Shown: positions 6,997 to 59,919 of the stretch, one piece after another
Numbering within the stretch: the stretch's first letter is position 1
Layout of the letters: each line of letters begins with the position of its first letter
Assembly: GCA_026016225.1 (NCBI GenBank)
Contig: CP061210.1
Span: forward strand, 194,000-257,999
From: Candidatus Nealsonbacteria bacterium
GTDB taxonomy: Bacteria; Patescibacteriota; Minisyncoccia; Minisyncoccales; JANBVM01
Direction of reading: 5' to 3'
Length of the DNA: 64,000 nt
Translations under genes and position numbers: made by a program
Notes under the pieces: model-generated
Seen by the model: the letters and a program-made list of their open reading frames with translations, nothing else
What the model was told of the DNA's origin: nothing
The model's database searches: none

Positions 6997-8289
6997 ATGA
7001 AGTTCATTGCCGATTTCCATTTACATTCAAAATATTCAAGGGCTACTTCCCCAAAGATGGATTTGGAAAATCTTGAGGAATGGGCAAAGATAAAAGGAAT
7101 TAAAGTTTTGGGAACAGGAGATTTCACCCACCCTTTTTGGTTTAAAAACTTAAAAGAGAAATTAGAACCTGCAGAAAGCGGGCTTTTTAAGATTAAGAAC
7201 CACGCTTCGCGGAACCTTGATTCTCGCTCCGCTCGAATTAAAAACAGTAATACCGGGATCCGTTTTATTTTAAGCGCTGAAATTAGTTGTATTTATTCCA
7301 AAGGAGGGAAGGTCCGTAAAATTCATATTGTAGTTTTAGCTCCCTCTTTTGATATTGTTGAAAAAATTAATACCCGTTTGGAAGGAATTGGGAATTTATC
7401 TGCTGACGGAAGACCAATATTAGGATTAGATGCAAAAGAATTGTTAAAAATTGTTTTAAACATCTCAACAGATTGTTTGTTTGTTCCCGCCCATGTAATG
7501 ACTCCCTGGTTTTCTATTTTCGGTTCAAAATCTGGGTTTGATTCAATTGAGGAATGTTTTGAAGATTATTCTAAATATATTTTTGTTTTAGAGACTGGGC
7601 TATCGGCTAACCCACCAATGCTCTGGCGCATACCAGATGCTCAAAAAGCAATTTTAATATCAAATTCAGATGCTCACTCACCAGCTAATATTGGTAGAGA
7701 GGCAAATGTTTTTAATACGGAGATTAGTTATCCTGCTATTGTTGAAGCTATAAAATCAAGAGATTCCGAAAAGTTTCTTTATACCATTGAGTTTTTTCCT
7801 CAGGAAGGAAAGTATCATTACGACGGTCATAGAATGTGCGGTATCAGATTAGCTCCCGAGGAATCGAAAAAATATAACAATATTTGTCCTAACTGCGGCA
7901 GACCCTTAACAATCGGAGTTTTAAATAGGATAGAACAATTATCAGTTGAGCCGAAAGGTTTTAAACTAAAAGGAGCTATTCCTTTTAAAAGCTTAGTTCC
8001 TTTGAGAGAAATAATTGCCGAAGTCTTGGGAATGGGTGTTACTACCAAAGGTGTTGAAAAAGAGTATAAGTCTTTAATTGAGAATTTTGGTAATGAGCTT
8101 GAAATTTTGCTTAATACTTCTCATGATGAGTTAGAGAAAGTTACCTTGCCTGAGACTGCAGAAGGAATAATTAGGGTTAGAGAAGGAAAAGTTTTTGTAG
8201 AACCCGGTTATGATGGGGTTTATGGAAAAGTAAGAATTTTTTCTAAAGGAGAACAAGAGTCTTTATCTAAACAAGGAGTCCTTTTTTAA
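6997..8289 (+). CDS. endoQ: PHP-domain endonuclease Q (EndoQ / TIGR00375)-like protein
   Basis: 430 aa. N-terminal PHP motif DFHLHSKYSRATS, GKYHYDGHRMCG, and zinc finger CPNCGRPLTIGVLNRI. Size and layout match the EndoQ family. Confidence 0.55.
   Translation: MKFIADFHLHSKYSRATSPKMDLENLEEWAKIKGIKVLGTGDFTHPFWFKNLKEKLEPAESGLFKIKNHASRNLDSRSARIKNSNTGIRFILSAEISCIYSKGGKVRKIHIVVLAPSFDIVEKINTRLEGIGNLSADGRPILGLDAKELLKIVLNISTDCLFVPAHVMTPWFSIFGSKSGFDSIEECFEDYSKYIFVLETGLSANPPMLWRIPDAQKAILISNSDAHSPANIGREANVFNTEISYPAIVEAIKSRDSEKFLYTIEFFPQEGKYHYDGHRMCGIRLAPEESKKYNNICPNCGRPLTIGVLNRIEQLSVEPKGFKLKGAIPFKSLVPLREIIAEVLGMGVTTKGVEKEYKSLIENFGNELEILLNTSHDELEKVTLPETAEGIIRVREGKVFVEPGYDGVYGKVRIFSKGEQESLSKQGVLF
7191..7244. 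repeat. GC-rich repeat element inserted in frame in the EndoQ-like gene
   Basis: ATTAAGAACCACGCTTCGCGGAACCTTGATTCTCGCTCCGCTCGAATTAAAAAC. It shares ATTAAGAACCA, GAACCTTGATTC and CTCGCTCCGCTCG with the reverse complement of the 14473-14558 tandem units. Flanked by ATTAAGAAC / ATTAAAAAC. Confidence 0.7.
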
Positions 8290-14448: not shown

Positions 14449-14472
14449 ATTTCTAATATCTAATTTCCGGAG

Positions 14473-14558
14473 GAATCAAGGTTCTGCCGAGCGGAGCGAG
14501 GCATGGTTCTTAATTCGCAGAATCAAGGTTCTGCCGAGCAGAGCGAGGCAGGTTCTTA
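14473..14558. repeat. two tandem copies of a 47-nt GC-rich unit upstream of rtcA
   Basis: Unit GAATCAAGGTTCTGCCGAGC(G/A)GAGCGAGGCA(T)GGTTCTTA(attcgca). Unit 1 is 14473-14519 and unit 2 is 14520-14558. Each has a CTGCC...GGCAG hairpin flanked by GGTTCT direct repeats. Confidence 0.85.
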
Positions 14559-14612
14559 TATACTATTAGTTAATTTTAAATTAATTTTAAAAAAATAAAA
14601 AGAGAATTTTCT

Positions 14613-14653
14613 TAATTGTAGAACAATTACAAGGAGCGAAGCGACTGGTTTCC
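14613..14653. repeat. partial copy (right half) of the 59192-59261 palindromic element
   Basis: Hairpin TAATTGT-aga-ACAATTA followed by GGAGCGAAGCGACTGGTTTCC. This matches 59242-59261 over 20 nt with one extra T. Confidence 0.7.
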
Positions 14654-23584: not shown

Positions 23585-23591
23585 GTTTTTG

Positions 23592-23929
23592 TGGAGGTGG
23601 CGAGCGCGAACTCGCGTCCAAAAATTGTTTCTAAGATAATTCTACAAGCTTATTCCAATTAAAGAATAACAGAAAATTCAAATTGGACAAAACTTTTCTG
23701 TGTTTGGTCTGTTTTTTTTCGATAGTTTCTTTAGACCTTAAAAACTATCTATCTCGATATATGACACCTACCTTATTTATCGAGAATCAGTAAAGCAGAT
23801 GGCATTAAGCGTAAGCTAATGCAGGTTCTTGAAATAAGTTGGCACTTATTTTTCTCTCAAAGTTTACGAGATTTGAGAATACTCGACTTGCCTATCTTAG
23901 TTAAATTTCTGTCGAAACTTTTCACCCCC
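23592..23929 (-). ncRNA. ssrA: tmRNA (SsrA)
   Basis: 5' end GGGGGTGAAAAGTTTCGACAG. 3' end GGACGCGAGTTCGCGCTCGCCACCTCCA. The 7-bp acceptor stem includes G3:U. Tag ORF is GCC AAC TTA TTT CAA GAA CCT GCA TTA GCT TAC GCT TAA, giving ANLFQEPALAYA (plus-strand 23805-23843). CCA is not encoded. Confidence 0.85.
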
Positions 23930-55133: not shown

Positions 55134-57203
55134 TTATTCTCTGTAATCGCAGTCTTTATTTGAGCATTTTATTTGTTTTCTTTTTGTTTCAATTAAAGGA
55201 AAATTACATTTTGGGCAAATCTTTCCTGTTGGTTTATACCATGTAGCAAAATCACAATTTGGCCAATTTGAACAACCGTAAAATATTTTCCCTTTCTTAG
55301 TTCTTTTTTCAACGATTTCTCCTTTTTTACATTTAGGGCATTTTATTCCCAAAGTATTTTTTTTCAAAGGCTCTGTATATTTACATTTTGGGAAATTGGA
55401 ACAAGCATAAAACTTTCCATATCTACCAAGCTTTATAATAATAGAACCCCCGCACTTTGGACATTTTTTACTGGTTTTTTCATAAGTTAATTTTTTATCA
55501 GGGATTTCTTTTTCTTTTTTCTTTAAGTTTTCTTCAAAAGGTATGTAAAATTCTCTTATTACTGGAACCCATTTTTTTTCACCTTTGGCAATTTCGTCTA
55601 AATCTTCTTCCATCTTTGCTGTAAAATTAACATCAACAATTTTTGGAAAGTGATTTACCAAAAGGTTATTAACCACTATTCCAATTTCTGTAGGACAAAA
55701 CCGTTTTTTCTCGTCTTTTTCAATATAATTTCTTTCTTGAATTGTAGATATTATTGGGGCATAAGTTGATGGACGGCCGATTCCATTTTCTTCCAACACT
55801 TTAATCAGGGTGGCTTCAGTATATCTCGGAGGAGCTTGGGTAAAATGTTGGGATGGAATTAATTTTATCAACTCCAAAATTTCATTTTTTGTTAAGAAAG
55901 GTAATTTATTTTCTTCAAACTTTATAAGGTAAACTTTTAGAAATCCGTCAAATTTTAAGGTTTGTCCGTTAGCTCTGAAAGTGTACTTTTTAGCTCCAAT
56001 ATTTACTTTAACTGAATCAAAAACAGCAGGAGCCATTTGACAAGCAATAAATCTTTTCCAGATTAATTCATACAGTTTTAAAACGTTACGATTTAATTTT
56101 GCTTCCTTTTCCAACTTCTCAGGCGTTTTACTTAAATACGTTGGTCTTATTGCTTCATGGGCCTCTTGGGCGGTTTTGCTTTTTGTTTTGTATTTTCTTA
56201 AAAATCCTGCCCAATAATTTTTCCCGTAATTTTCAATAATAAATCTTTTAGCACCAAATAAAGCTAAATTAGAAAGATTCAAAGAATCACTTCTGTGATA
56301 GGTGATTAAACCCCTTTCGTAGAGATTTTGAGCTATCCGCATTGTTAGTTTTGCAGGAAAGCGGAATCTCCCCCATGACTCTTGTTGAAGAGTAGAAGTC
56401 ATAAAAGGAGGTAAGGGGTTTTTTTTGGTTTCTTTTTTTTCAATATCAACAACCCTGTATTCAGTCCCTTTTAAATCCTTTATTATTTCTGTTGCTTGTT
56501 TTTTTGTTTTAATTTCTAATTTTGGAATTGTTTTTCCATCTTTTTTAACTAAAAGAGCTTTAAACTCTTTTTGTTCTTTGTTCTCTGTTTTTTGTTTATC
56601 CTGAGCGAAGCCGAAGGATTTTTTAAGTAATGCTTCAATACTCCAGTATTCTTGAGGGACAAAACTTTCGATTTCTTTTTCTCTTTCTACCACCAATCTT
56701 ACCGTTACTGATTGTACTCTCCCTGCTGATAATCTTCTCACTACTTTTTTCCATAAAAAAGGGGATAACTTATAACCAACGATTCTATCTAAGATTCTCC
56801 TTGTTTGCTGGGCGTCAACCAATTGCATATCAATATCCCTCGGGTTTTTAAGAGCTTCTTTAATGGCTGATTTCGTAATTTCATGAAAAACAATTCTTTT
56901 AAGTCCTTTTTTCTTTAGTATTTCACTAAGATGCCAGGCAATAGCTTCTCCCTCTCTATCAAAATCCATGCCTAAATAAATCCTTTCAGCTTCTGCGGCC
57001 AATTTTTTGAGTTGGGTAATTGTAGCTTTTCTCTTGGGAATAACTATATATTTTGGGGTAAAATCTTTATCTATATCAATACCAAAACTTTTCTCCGGTA
57101 AATCACGAATGTGTCCCATGGTAGCGGCAACTTGATAATCTTTACCTAAAAACCTTTTAAGAGTTCTCGATTTTGTTGGACTTTCTACTACTATTAATTT
57201 CAT
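55134..57203 (-). CDS. topA: DNA topoisomerase I with C-terminal zinc ribbons
   Basis: Toprim start MKLIVVESPTKSRT, active-site region ITYHRSDS, and three C4 ribbons (CPKCGG...CSNFPKC and others). ATG 57201-57203 is preferred over the track start at 57239. Confidence 0.9.
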   Translation of the reverse strand: MKLIVVESPTKSRTLKRFLGKDYQVAATMGHIRDLPEKSFGIDIDKDFTPKYIVIPKRKATITQLKKLAAEAERIYLGMDFDREGEAIAWHLSEILKKKGLKRIVFHEITKSAIKEALKNPRDIDMQLVDAQQTRRILDRIVGYKLSPFLWKKVVRRLSAGRVQSVTVRLVVEREKEIESFVPQEYWSIEALLKKSFGFAQDKQKTENKEQKEFKALLVKKDGKTIPKLEIKTKKQATEIIKDLKGTEYRVVDIEKKETKKNPLPPFMTSTLQQESWGRFRFPAKLTMRIAQNLYERGLITYHRSDSLNLSNLALFGAKRFIIENYGKNYWAGFLRKYKTKSKTAQEAHEAIRPTYLSKTPEKLEKEAKLNRNVLKLYELIWKRFIACQMAPAVFDSVKVNIGAKKYTFRANGQTLKFDGFLKVYLIKFEENKLPFLTKNEILELIKLIPSQHFTQAPPRYTEATLIKVLEENGIGRPSTYAPIISTIQERNYIEKDEKKRFCPTEIGIVVNNLLVNHFPKIVDVNFTAKMEEDLDEIAKGEKKWVPVIREFYIPFEENLKKKEKEIPDKKLTYEKTSKKCPKCGGSIIIKLGRYGKFYACSNFPKCKYTEPLKKNTLGIKCPKCKKGEIVEKRTKKGKIFYGCSNWPNCDFATWYKPTGKICPKCNFPLIETKRKQIKCSNKDCDYRE
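56598..56619. repeat. GC-rich hairpin in frame in topA
   Basis: ATCCT-GAGCGAAGCCGA-AGGAT. The loop carries the GAGCGAAGC core also seen at 14634 and 59243. It encodes part of SFGFAQDKQ on the minus strand. Confidence 0.5.
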
Positions 57204-58115: not shown

Positions 58116-58252
58116 AATAGATAATTATTAAACTATAACAACAATCTTAAAAATTTTAAAATATTTGACTTTTTTTACAAGGTGTTTTATTCTATAAAAG
58201 TGAGTTAATTTTAAAATTAAATAAAATAGAAATGAAAAAATAGTTGGTTGAA

Positions 58253-58423
58253 ATGTTAGGAAAATTGCTTACAGGTATTTTAATGACAGGTTTTGTTTTA
58301 TTTACAGCAGGGGTTTATACAGCTGTTGAAACTGTAAAGACTATCAGTGGGCCAGCCATAGTAATTGGAACTTATGGATTGATAGAATTTCTAGACGCTT
58401 GGGACGCTATTCACGATCCTTAA
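58253..58423 (+). CDS. possible 56-aa small membrane protein
   Basis: MLGKLLTGILMTGFVLFTAGVYTAVETVKTISGPAIVIGTYGLIEFLDAWDAIHDP has two hydrophobic segments. It is followed by its own terminator and has TTGACT upstream (58164-58169). Below the ORF-track cutoff. Confidence 0.3.
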   Translation: MLGKLLTGILMTGFVLFTAGVYTAVETVKTISGPAIVIGTYGLIEFLDAWDAIHDP

Positions 58424-58445
58424 ATATTTTATATTAATCCCTAAT

Positions 58446-58470
58446 AAGGTCCTTTGCGGCCTTTTTTTTA
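58446..58470 (+). terminator. terminator after the small ORF
   Basis: AAGG(T)CC-tttgc-GGCCTT hairpin followed by a T-run. Confidence 0.6.
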
Positions 58471-58584: not shown

Positions 58585-59166
58585 TTAATTAAATTCATTC
58601 ATTGCTTTTTCTATTCCTTGTTTTAAACTAATTTCAATTGCTTTAAGGCAGTTTTTAATAACTTTATTTATAAGCTTTTTTTCTGTTTTTGTAAATTTCT
58701 GAAGAACAAAAGCTTCCATAGATAAATGGCTAAATGGTTTTATTGATTTATAGTCAGGATTTATTCCGATGCGAAAACGAATAAAGTTTTTTGTCCTTAT
58801 TCCATCAATTATAGACTGAACTCCTTTATGTCCCGCTGCTCTTTTATTTTTTACAATTTTGATTTTTCCCAACTCAAGATCAATATCGTCATGAATTACC
58901 CAAAGACTTGCAGCTGGTATTTTGTAGTTTGTAACCAGTATTCTGGCTGCTTTCCCGGAATTATTCATAAAAGTTTGAGGTTTTGCCAAAATAACCCTTT
59001 TTCTATTCAAAGAGCCCTTTGAGATTAAAGATTTGAATTTTTTTGAAGACTTAAATTCAGGGAAGTAATTCTTCTCAGAAAATCTATCTAAAACCCTGAA
59101 ACCAAGGTTGTGTCGCGTAAATTTATATTTTTTATCCGGGTTTCCTAAACCAATAATTAATATCAT
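58585..59166 (-). CDS. pth: peptidyl-tRNA hydrolase
   Basis: MILIIGLGNPDKKYKFTRHNLGF, NNSG and VIHDDIDL..G..K are canonical bacterial Pth. Confidence 0.9.
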   Translation of the reverse strand: MILIIGLGNPDKKYKFTRHNLGFRVLDRFSEKNYFPEFKSSKKFKSLISKGSLNRKRVILAKPQTFMNNSGKAARILVTNYKIPAASLWVIHDDIDLELGKIKIVKNKRAAGHKGVQSIIDGIRTKNFIRFRIGINPDYKSIKPFSHLSMEAFVLQKFTKTEKKLINKVIKNCLKAIEISLKQGIEKAMNEFN

Positions 59167-59191
59167 ACTTTTTTAATTGAGAAACAATTAC

Positions 59192-59261
59192 GGAACCAGT
59201 CGGGGCTATGCCCCTCCTTGTCATTGCTTCGCAATGAATGAGGAGCGAAGCGACTGGTTCC
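59192..59261. repeat. 70-nt GC-rich palindromic (three-way-junction) element
   Basis: Perfect 11-bp terminal inverted repeats GGAACCAGTCG / CGACTGGTTCC enclose the hairpins GGGC-tat-GCCC and CTCCT..CATTGC-ttc-GCAATG..AGGAG. Confidence 0.8.
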
Positions 59262-59298
59262 TTTATTATATCATTAAACATTCTGAGAGAAGAAGGGC

Positions 59299-59326
59299 TT
59301 GCCAAAAAGAAAAAAACTGGTAAAAT
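59299..59326 (+). promoter_or_regulatory. promoter whose -10 box lies 8 nt from the lepB ATG (leaderless-type)
   Basis: TTGCCA (59299-59304), 16-nt spacer, TAAAAT (59321-59326), ATG at 59335. Confidence 0.4.
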
Positions 59327-59334
59327 AAGAAGAT

Positions 59335-59919
59335 ATGAAAAAGTTTTTTTCTTTTAATTCTATAACTAAATTTCTTGCTGAAGGTAAAAGTCTTTTGTTT
59401 GAAGTGATAAAGATAGCGATATTGGTTGCTGTAATTGTACTTCCTGTTCGTTATTTTCTTTTTCAGCCTTTTTTTGTTCAAGGCATTTCAATGGAGCCCA
59501 ATTTTGAAAATGGAGATTATTTAATTATTGATGAAATTTCTTACAGATTTACAGAGCCGGAGAGAGGAGAGATAATTGTTTTTAAATATCCTAAAAACCC
59601 TTCTCAACGTTATATCAAAAGAATCATTGGACTTCCAGGGGAAACAGTAGAGATTAAAGATGGTAAAATTATAATTATCAATGGAAAAGAGAGTCAAATA
59701 TTAAATGAATCAAAATATTTACCTCAAAACATAGAAACTTCAGGAAATATAAGAGTTTCTCTTTCAGAAAATGAATATTTTGTTTTAGGAGACAATAGAG
59801 ATTTTTCTTTGGACTCAAGACGCTGGGGAGTTTTGCCAAAACAATATATTATTGGGAAGGTATATTTTAGAGCCTGGCCATTTACAACTTTAGCTAAATT
59901 TGAAGCTCCGGCTTATTAG
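59335..59919 (+). CDS. lepB: signal peptidase I
   Basis: N-terminal TM helix. Catalytic Ser box GISMEPNF, Lys box YIKRIIGLPGE, and GDNRDFSLDSR. Confidence 0.9.
   Translation: MKKFFSFNSITKFLAEGKSLLFEVIKIAILVAVIVLPVRYFLFQPFFVQGISMEPNFENGDYLIIDEISYRFTEPERGEIIVFKYPKNPSQRYIKRIIGLPGETVEIKDGKIIIINGKESQILNESKYLPQNIETSGNIRVSLSENEYFVLGDNRDFSLDSRRWGVLPKQYIIGKVYFRAWPFTTLAKFEAPAY

Follow-up and report, generated by a model that had tools for sequence, protein, structure and literature searches.

Background

Bacterial MITEs, such as the Correia elements of Neisseria, are small, carry terminal inverted repeats, lie near promoters, affect transcripts and are polymorphic among strains. The Rickettsia palindromic element RPE-1 is about 100-150 bp long; RPE reportedly occur in frame in conserved protein genes, at tolerant surface loops (an observation credited to Ogata and colleagues in 2000), and they are not known to have a dedicated transposase. 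RPE are palindromic repeats without a gene of their own whose intragenic copies are translated (PMC3733652). The REP/REPIN sequences are short (20-40 bp), GC-rich, imperfect palindromes that often form head-to-head dimers folding into a larger hairpin (Di Nocera et al. 2013, PMC3733652). They are mainly intergenic, some of them lie in ORFs and are translated, their stems are kept by compensatory change and they too have no gene of their own; in the GTAG and CGTC superfamilies an unpaired GTAG or CGTC (TGTC/CCTC) tag stands at the hairpin end (PMC3733652). These superfamilies are also marked by many copies scattered over a genome and by a RAYT (Y1/HUH) transposase gene that the repeats flank. 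The heptamer GCGNAGC, for its part, is an extraordinarily stable DNA mini-hairpin with natural cases at single-strand DNA priming sites and hairpin promoters (PMC13037366).

The subject of this analysis is a 70-nt palindrome in a 64-kb stretch of a Candidatus Nealsonbacteria genome (the window). It resembles REP/REPIN in having a palindromic unit (~46 nt, with a 6-bp covarying hairpin) arranged as a head-to-head dimer, and its family likewise includes intergenic and translated intragenic copies, shows compensatory stems and has no gene of its own. Unlike REP/REPIN, it bears no GTAG or CGTC tag beside the hairpin: where REP have a tetranucleotide tag, the unit carries a conserved 5' module as long as 18-20 nt, and it is found between divergent genes and beside start codons, not downstream of genes. 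The apparently low copy number, the lack of a RAYT transposase in a crude motif search of the loci examined, and the host, a Patescibacteria genome of ~0.65-0.7 Mb, also set it apart from REP/REPIN. In view of the missing tags, the failure to find a RAYT and the seemingly low copy number, the element is not filed here as a member of REP/REPIN or RPE. We consider it probable, all the same, that it is a REPIN-like head-to-head dimer of a ~46-nt GC-rich palindromic unit, that is, a piece of non-autonomous mobile or selfish DNA.

Structure of the 70-nt element

59192-59261, no strand assigned: composite palindrome, read as two inverted units with one common central hairpin and closed by an 11-bp perfect inverted repeat
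59222-59236, no strand assigned: central shared hairpin CATTG-CTTCG-CAATG, containing GCTTCGC, the complement of the GCGAAGC mini-hairpin motif

The arms of the palindrome, GGAACCAGTCG (59192-59202) and its exact reverse complement CGACTGGTTCC (59251-59261), lie exactly where the original prediction had placed them, and so do the two inner hairpins, GGGC-tat-GCCC (59203-59213) and CTCCT..CATTG-cttcg-CAATG..AGGAG (59214-59245). The outer palindrome begins with GGAACC, and the central hairpin is flanked by CTCCTTG and AAG(G/A)A. This is the sole GC-rich (at least 6/11 G+C) perfect 11-bp inverted repeat with a gap of 3-60 nt in the window, 0.017 being expected per 64 kb according to Markov-1 simulations. 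As RNA, the + strand reaches a minimum free energy of -40.9 kcal/mol vs -19.9 +/- 2.9 for its shuffles (z = -7.35, 0/200) and the - strand one of -41.4 kcal/mol (z = -7.5); the DNA fold gives z = -7.35. The folding that had been proposed as a check therefore places RNA and DNA folds far below those of shuffled sequences, with z about -7.4 on either strand, and the 70-nt element is a real, non-random structure. The three-way junction expected from the first reading is the minimum-energy structure of the + strand only, since the - strand folds into a rod with internal loops.

The element does occupy the spacer between the divergent genes pth (58585-59166, - strand) and lepB (59335-59919, + strand), and it has no coding capacity, the only ORFs in it (48 and 57 aa) being spurious. 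Small size, terminal inverted repeats and the lack of coding capacity are features that it has in common with MITEs.

Its stability raises the possibility of an independent small structured RNA gene of ~70 nt, which the original prediction had listed as an option. The fold is very stable on both strands and the central hairpin shows compensatory changes between copies (see below), as such a gene would require. Nevertheless, the site scan found no terminator on either strand and no + strand promoter-like site upstream, ARAGORN called no tRNA or tmRNA at the site, and Rfam returned no match at the gathering score or E-value threshold, so that the element belongs to no Rfam small RNA family. The best Rfam alignment was to hammerhead type III (E = 1.2), an identity that was dropped because the alignment has no CUGAUGA/GAAA core. 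The element is moreover absent from close relatives, the composite was not found elsewhere, and proteins contain in-frame copies of its units in either orientation. A discrete small RNA is thus extremely unlikely.

An intrinsic terminator or transcriptional insulator would fit the strong GC-rich stem followed by TTTATTAT on the + strand. The terminator scan finds nothing of the kind, however, and the members of the family generally have no T-tract. The element lies between divergent gene starts and, because pth and lepB diverge, no incoming transcript needs terminating there, which makes this the least credible of the explanations considered.

The repeat unit and its dimer

Matches to the 18-mer AACCAGTCGCTTCGCTCC (the right arm, in - strand reading), whose distribution is described below, include a group of AT-rich units from which a covariance model, R1, was built. 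Four features of the window match it:

59191-59242, + strand: unit B, GGAACCAGTCG-[GGGCTATGCCC]-CTCCTTGT-CATTGcttcgCAATG-AA (R1 match, 50.9 bits, E 8.6e-12)
59214-59262, - strand: 5' module of unit A, which carries the 18-nt core AACCAGTCGCTTCGCTCC without mismatch, taken together with the shared central hairpin (R1 match, 38.5 bits, E 1.9e-8)
59174-59191, - strand: AT-rich hairpin GTAATTG-tttct-CAATTA, the putative 3' hairpin of the ancestral unit A (R1 partial match, 14.5 bits)
14608-14653, - strand: simple (monomeric) copy of the ~46-nt unit, upstream of an rtcA-like gene (R1 match, 66.2 bits)

In the repeat unit, which is ~46 nt long, a 5' module, GGAACCAGTCGCTTCGCTCC, precedes a short hairpin, TTGTAATTG-nnnnn-CAATTAAG. 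The R1 matches of the 70-nt element lie on opposite strands and overlap at the central hairpin. With two units opposed on a shared hairpin, the 70 nt reads as a head-to-head dimer of ~46-nt units, and the 11-bp terminal inverted repeat would thus correspond to two 5' modules face to face. The earlier assumption that the 70 nt is itself the element has to be given up under R1: the repeating unit is the ~46-nt one, of which the 70 nt would be the dimer. The recurrence of the right-hand 20-mer near position 14633 was noted at the outset and is indeed found, at 14633-14652 with one mismatch (0 expected), within the simple copy. That copy is present in strain L122 and absent in the relatives L123 and L124, whose RtcA proteins are 76-77% identical.

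The same nested architecture also occurs independently at another locus (L027). No copy of the exact 70-nt composite was detected beyond this species, and a metagenome scan for the exact pair of arms 30-60 nt apart returned 11 matches, all of them unrelated palindromes in GC-rich DNA. The copy number of the unit looks low: the 64-kb window contains three units at two loci, in addition to three sister modules, and some other genomes have 2-4 unit copies per 8-16 kb examined.

Covariation in the stems, another of the checks proposed, was found. The 6-bp AT-rich hairpin keeps 99% pairing over 18 distinct copies, with changes on both sides in four pairs, and its covariation score was reached by 0/500 shuffles. 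The stem of a second group of copies (plain hairpins, see below) covaries as well, one pair, for instance, being C-G in 8 copies and A-U in 7; one copy (L083) has an inverted loop, with GCGAAGC in place of GCTTCGC. Yet covariation does not tell an RNA structure from a DNA palindrome, for which the compensatory changes of the central hairpin are equally expected.

The pth/lepB spacer with and without the element

59164-59166, - strand: pth start codon
59265-59273, - strand: extended -10 box TGATATAAT, kept in relatives, the putative pth promoter
59299-59326, + strand: promoter-like site of lepB, TTGCAA-16-TGGTAAAAT

Presence or absence in relatives was also to be checked, and the 70-nt element proved to be missing at the orthologous sites of six relatives' contigs (Pth 69-72% identical, same lepB/pth synteny). 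Their divergent lepB/pth spacers measure 114-145 nt and end in ...AAAAATGATATAATGAAAAAATG(pth); the empty site reads TGATATAATGAAAAAATG, i.e. TGATATAAT-GAAAAA-ATG(pth). The extended -10 box is there 6 nt from the pth ATG, which is the layout predicted for a leaderless mRNA. In the window the -10 hexamer of TGATATAAT ends 3 nt from the 70-nt element, and the site reads TGATATAATAAA[GGAACC...70 nt...GGTTCC GTAATTGTTTCTCAATTA]AAAAAGTATG. Comparison of both layouts thus reveals ~88 extra nt (the 70-nt element and the AT-rich hairpin) that separate this -10 box from the pth ATG, in the window as well as in CP179891.1 and CP179892.1. A closer relative (L104, Pth 93% identical) has ...CTTCGCTCCTTGTAATTGCTTCGCAATTAAAGAAGTATG at the same place, that is, a simple unit without an inverted partner. 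Comparison with this relative and with the empty sites makes the AT-rich hairpin at 59174-59191 part of the insertion, which ends 7 nt before the pth ATG. The limits first given thus hold for the palindrome, and the repeat runs 18 nt further left.

The promoter assignment needs a similar amendment. The element was said to lie upstream of a + strand -35 box at 59299, and a promoter-like site does exist at 59299-59326, 8 nt before the lepB ATG and kept in the window lineage and in all relatives compared; the promoter relevant to the element is, however, TGATATAAT (59273-59265), on the opposite strand. Both pth and lepB are seemingly leaderless in this clade, with -10 boxes 6 and 8 nt from their ATG (L105-L110). 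The -10 box and start codon of lepB lie between the arms of a perfect 14-bp inverted repeat (59305-59318 / 59342-59355).

As the comparison of empty and filled sites shows, the ancestor of this Nealsonbacteria lineage acquired a unit in the A-rich stretch between TGATATAAT and the start codon of pth, a gene that had been leaderless before. A second unit may have been added later, inverted, inside the first, an event that would explain both the branched fold and the terminal inverted repeat of 11 bp. The insertion sites observed here are A/T-rich (TATAATAAA^, TTAAGAAC^, CTAATA^ and TTAAAAAA^), and two of these are at or beside -10 boxes. The pth insertion lies in an A-run, where no target-site duplication can be defined.

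The window is 99.0-99.8% identical to CP179891.1 (a complete genome of 694,748 bp whose Pth is identical to that of the window) and to CP179892.1 (annotated as Candidatus Nealsonbacteria, Pth 99% identical). At this level of identity each of them has one uncompensated substitution in the 70 nt, which appears to show no sign of strong constraint. Two short-read contigs with the same pth stop inside the 70-nt element. Other parts of this region and of these genomes also vary: positions 58116-58455 of the window, between pth and dprA, do not align with CP179892.1, L104 has ~180 extra nt there, and the segment is strain-variable with small ORFs. Outside the window, CP179892.1 (L103 610-3492) encodes a 960-aa NrdD with intein and LAGLIDADG Pfam matches, and the NrdD of relatives has 710-713 aa without such matches.

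These comparisons bear on two regulatory explanations. The first is an operator, or some other site bound by a protein, that would control the divergent promoters of pth and lepB, another option of the original prediction, suggested by the presence of palindromic DNA between two divergent promoters. Both promoters are kept in relatives that do not have the element, and the same unit is found upstream of an unrelated gene in the window and, in other genomes, in coding regions and beside tRNA genes. Furthermore, known operators do not resemble a branched, GC-rich palindrome of 70 bp, and this explanation is very improbable.

The second is a cis-acting RNA leader, in which case the element would be kept because a stem-loop at the 5' end of the pth mRNA stabilises the transcript or tunes its translation. 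The extended -10 box lies directly upstream, and with only 3 nt between the end of its -10 hexamer and the element, the pth transcript should start at or within the element's first bases, giving a leader of ~95 nt. The predicted fold of this leader is stable (-45.5 kcal/mol, z = -6.1) and leaves the ATG region mostly open, including an unstructured A-rich stretch ahead of the start codon. Units are frequently adjacent to start codons, 8/11 of the intergenic ones being oriented toward the downstream gene, and this bias leaves room for a role at the RNA level; the substitution of CP179892.1, in addition, still pairs as G.U on the pth-sense strand. Against this, the substitution of CP179891.1 creates a C.A mismatch on the same strand, the pth genes of relatives appear to be expressed without any leader, and there is no Shine-Dalgarno sequence to regulate. 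Copies of the family in coding regions, in both orientations, and beside tRNA genes are likewise difficult to reconcile with selection as a leader. A very stable 5' hairpin could shield the 5' end of the pth mRNA, but such an effect is not required to explain the presence of the element. A leader function is thus rather unlikely as the reason for the element, although an element of mobile origin could have been exapted for it. If the element acts at the DNA level, the structured pth leader would be an incidental outcome.

Sister modules in the window

7201-7245, + strand: 45-nt in-frame sister-module insertion containing GAACCACGCTTCGCGG, in the gene at 6997-8289
14461-14563, - strand: two tandem sister hairpin modules, GAATTAAGAACC-hairpin-GAACCTTGATTC, ~100 nt, upstream of the rtcA-like gene
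56568-56618, - strand: 51-nt lineage-specific in-frame topA insertion, SFGFAQDKQKTENKEQ, with an A-rich tail

These modules have GAACCA..CGCTTCGC in common and are lineage- or strain-specific insertions. The insertion at 7201-7245 is exactly 45 nt long (IKNHASRNLDSRSAR), forms a GC-rich hairpin and is flanked by ATTAAGAAC/ATTAAAAAC; it is absent from strain L122 (about 97-98% nt identity) and from L124, whose orthologue is 74% identical. The ~100-nt insertion at 14461-14563 is also absent from L122 (about 97% nt identity), and apart from these two insertions no large indel distinguishes the window from that strain over the 14 kb compared. The ~100-nt insertion splits a -10-like TAAGAT box, which its flanking repeat re-creates. 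The topA insert, missing from four relatives and from solved TopA structures, carries a hairpin, ATCCT-TCGGCTTCGCTC-AGGAT, at 56598-56619 with a GCTTCGCTC loop. The original prediction had pointed to the core within topA at 56603, and GAGCGAAGC is found there (56603-56611). Five of the six GCGAAGC/GCTTCGC heptamers of the window lie within the hairpin modules described here, ~1.9 heptamers being expected in total.

Direct repeats of 9 and about 11 nt flank the sister modules; they are imperfect and look like the ends of the elements, so that copying guided by microhomology is as possible as transposition. They may represent microhomology rather than classical target-site duplications.

Distribution in other genomes

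The 18-mer AACCAGTCGCTTCGCTCC was searched on both strands in one genome per prokaryotic species (596 Gb). It was found in 99 stretches vs ~17 expected for a random 18-mer, and about 33-35 of them belong to Patescibacteria of many classes. Once the probable chance matches are removed, three groups remain:

AT-rich units: AACCAGTCGCTTCGCTCC-TTGTAATTG-nnnnn-CAATTAAG, in Nealsonbacteria, Parcubacteria, Saccharibacteria and unclassified MAGs, essentially identical to 14608-14653
Plain hairpins: CC(A/C)TGAACC-AGTCGCTTCGCTCC-GGTTCA(T/G)GG, in Peribacteria and Komeili-, Terry-, Doudna- and Harrisonbacteria
Adiutrix repeat: ~130 nt, at more than 45 loci of one Adiutrix MAG

The Adiutrix repeats (Desulfobacterota, termite gut; loci L008, L022, L054 and L065 among others) are dispersed and tandem, with the exact 18-mer followed by GTCGCCCC-tctcc-GGGGGCGAC. 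Viral contigs gave three 18-mer matches, roughly the chance level by a rough estimate, and two of these resemble the hairpins of the family. Rfam scans of 31 related loci detected tRNAs and one RNase P and nothing else.

Copies with AACCAGTCGCTTCGCTCC occur in spacers, in tRNA flanks and in frame within conserved proteins, in both orientations. About 12 of the Patescibacteria copies are within roughly 150 nt of tRNA genes, some of them abutting directly. Nine of the about 33 Patescibacteria matches are in frame inside real proteins (three in forward and six in reverse orientation), the hosts being an Mfd-like protein, TsaD (twice), YchF, SerRS, a PQQ-like protein and a Cys-rich protein in three Peribacteria. 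The two TsaD copies occupy the same loop with different unit types and orientations and, when YchF and TsaD are aligned to solved homologues, the residues encoded by the hairpins correspond to extra loops. The in-frame copies use three different reading frames of the core; this variety of frames and orientations means that selection acts neither on a fixed RNA strand nor on a peptide.

The 18-nt core is identical between very distant lineages and in orthologous Peribacteria genes whose flanks have diverged. This identity suggests selection or concerted evolution rather than pure junk, on a sample of copies chosen by exact match, which overstates the conservation of the core: diverged copies are found in the same genomes as the exact ones, and the cores of the Saccharibacteria matches recovered with R1 have diverged. 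In three Peribacteria (L006, L052 and L057) the hairpin stands at the same site of the orthologous Cys-rich protein, with ~30 nt nearly identical and the flanking protein diverged; these loci, also picked by exact match, suggest constraint at the nucleotide level or gene conversion.

Four Saccharibacteria-like matches are organised differently. Two of them (L024 and L029) have a ~140-nt hairpin cluster that opens with the 18-mer and follows a duplicated first ~30 nt of dnaX (MANLVLYRKY), and in the other two (L035 and L094) a ~140-nt cluster follows a duplicated 17-20 nt of a tRNA end. The Saccharibacteria-like insertions therefore carry long duplications of the end of their target gene. A tmRNA tag region had been considered for these four matches and was dropped, as neither Rfam nor ARAGORN detects a tmRNA; the conserved MANLVLYRKY frame is the duplicated dnaX start at two loci, and the other two have duplicated tRNA ends beside the insertion. 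The window itself has a full-length tmRNA at 23589-23929 (- strand; Rfam, 133.5 bits) that ARAGORN does not report.

Comparison with RPE, MITEs and mini-hairpin DNA

When set side by side by description, RPE and the present family are both palindromic repeats of reduced, AT-rich genomes that reside in conserved genes as well as in spacers. In-frame, translated insertions in conserved genes, typical of RPE, are found for the family in YchF, TsaD, the Mfd-like protein, SerRS and others and, in the window, in the gene at 6997-8289 and in topA; the 70-nt element itself is intergenic. The host groups are unrelated, however, RPE-1 is longer, and the present family has a near-invariant core over many classes.

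The likeness to MITEs is partial. The element is small, with terminal inverted repeats and a promoter-adjacent insertion, and its family shows presence/absence polymorphism. Unlike MITEs, it has no cognate insertion sequence known to share its ends (the loci examined contained none) and no clear target duplication of fixed length, and its inverted repeat would arise from the dimerisation of units, not from transposase-binding ends. Like GCGNAGC mini-hairpin DNA, the element carries one GCGAAGC motif on each strand; the likeness is confined to these 7 nt of the element. The 14-mer is absent from the literature searched, in which no such repeat is tied to Patescibacteria either, and the family appears to be undescribed, although its kind is known.

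Origin and significance of the repeats

Among the options first listed for the element, the miniature inverted-repeat one fares best, given the presence or absence of the element at orthologous sites, the dispersed and in-frame copies in both orientations and the strain-level polymorphism of the sister modules. The 70-nt element is most likely a mobile palindromic repeat dimer rather than an RNA gene or an operator. Its recognition and spread would take place at the DNA level, via hairpin or cruciform DNA or via single-stranded DNA. A crude regular-expression motif search for Y1/HUH ORFs detected no transposase or mobilising enzyme in the loci examined.

A broader and more speculative reading, which we regard as possible but doubtful, is that these sequences make up an undescribed superfamily of modular hairpin repeats, whose 18-20-nt core (AACCAGTCGCTTCGCTCC, around GCGAAGC/GCTTCGC) is near-invariant over many Patescibacteria classes and the Adiutrix repeat. 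The core would be read by a conserved DNA-level machinery that copies modules into -10-to-ATG gaps, tRNA flanks and protein loops in the smallest bacterial genomes known. This machinery could be a nuclease of the HUH type, an enzyme resembling a primase, or a process of repair or template switching.

Active selfish palindromic repeats are unexpected in Patescibacteria because their genomes are among the most streamlined known. Here they remodel the regions between promoter and start codon, apparently turning an essential, leaderless pth into a leadered gene, and they add 15-aa loops to conserved enzymes, varying between strains that are ~97% identical. For annotation, the repeats account for GC-rich islands, odd protein insertions and broken assemblies, such as the two short-read contigs that end in the element. 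The near-invariant core over distant lineages hints at a recognition machinery, and R1 and the 18-mer provide handles for finding it.
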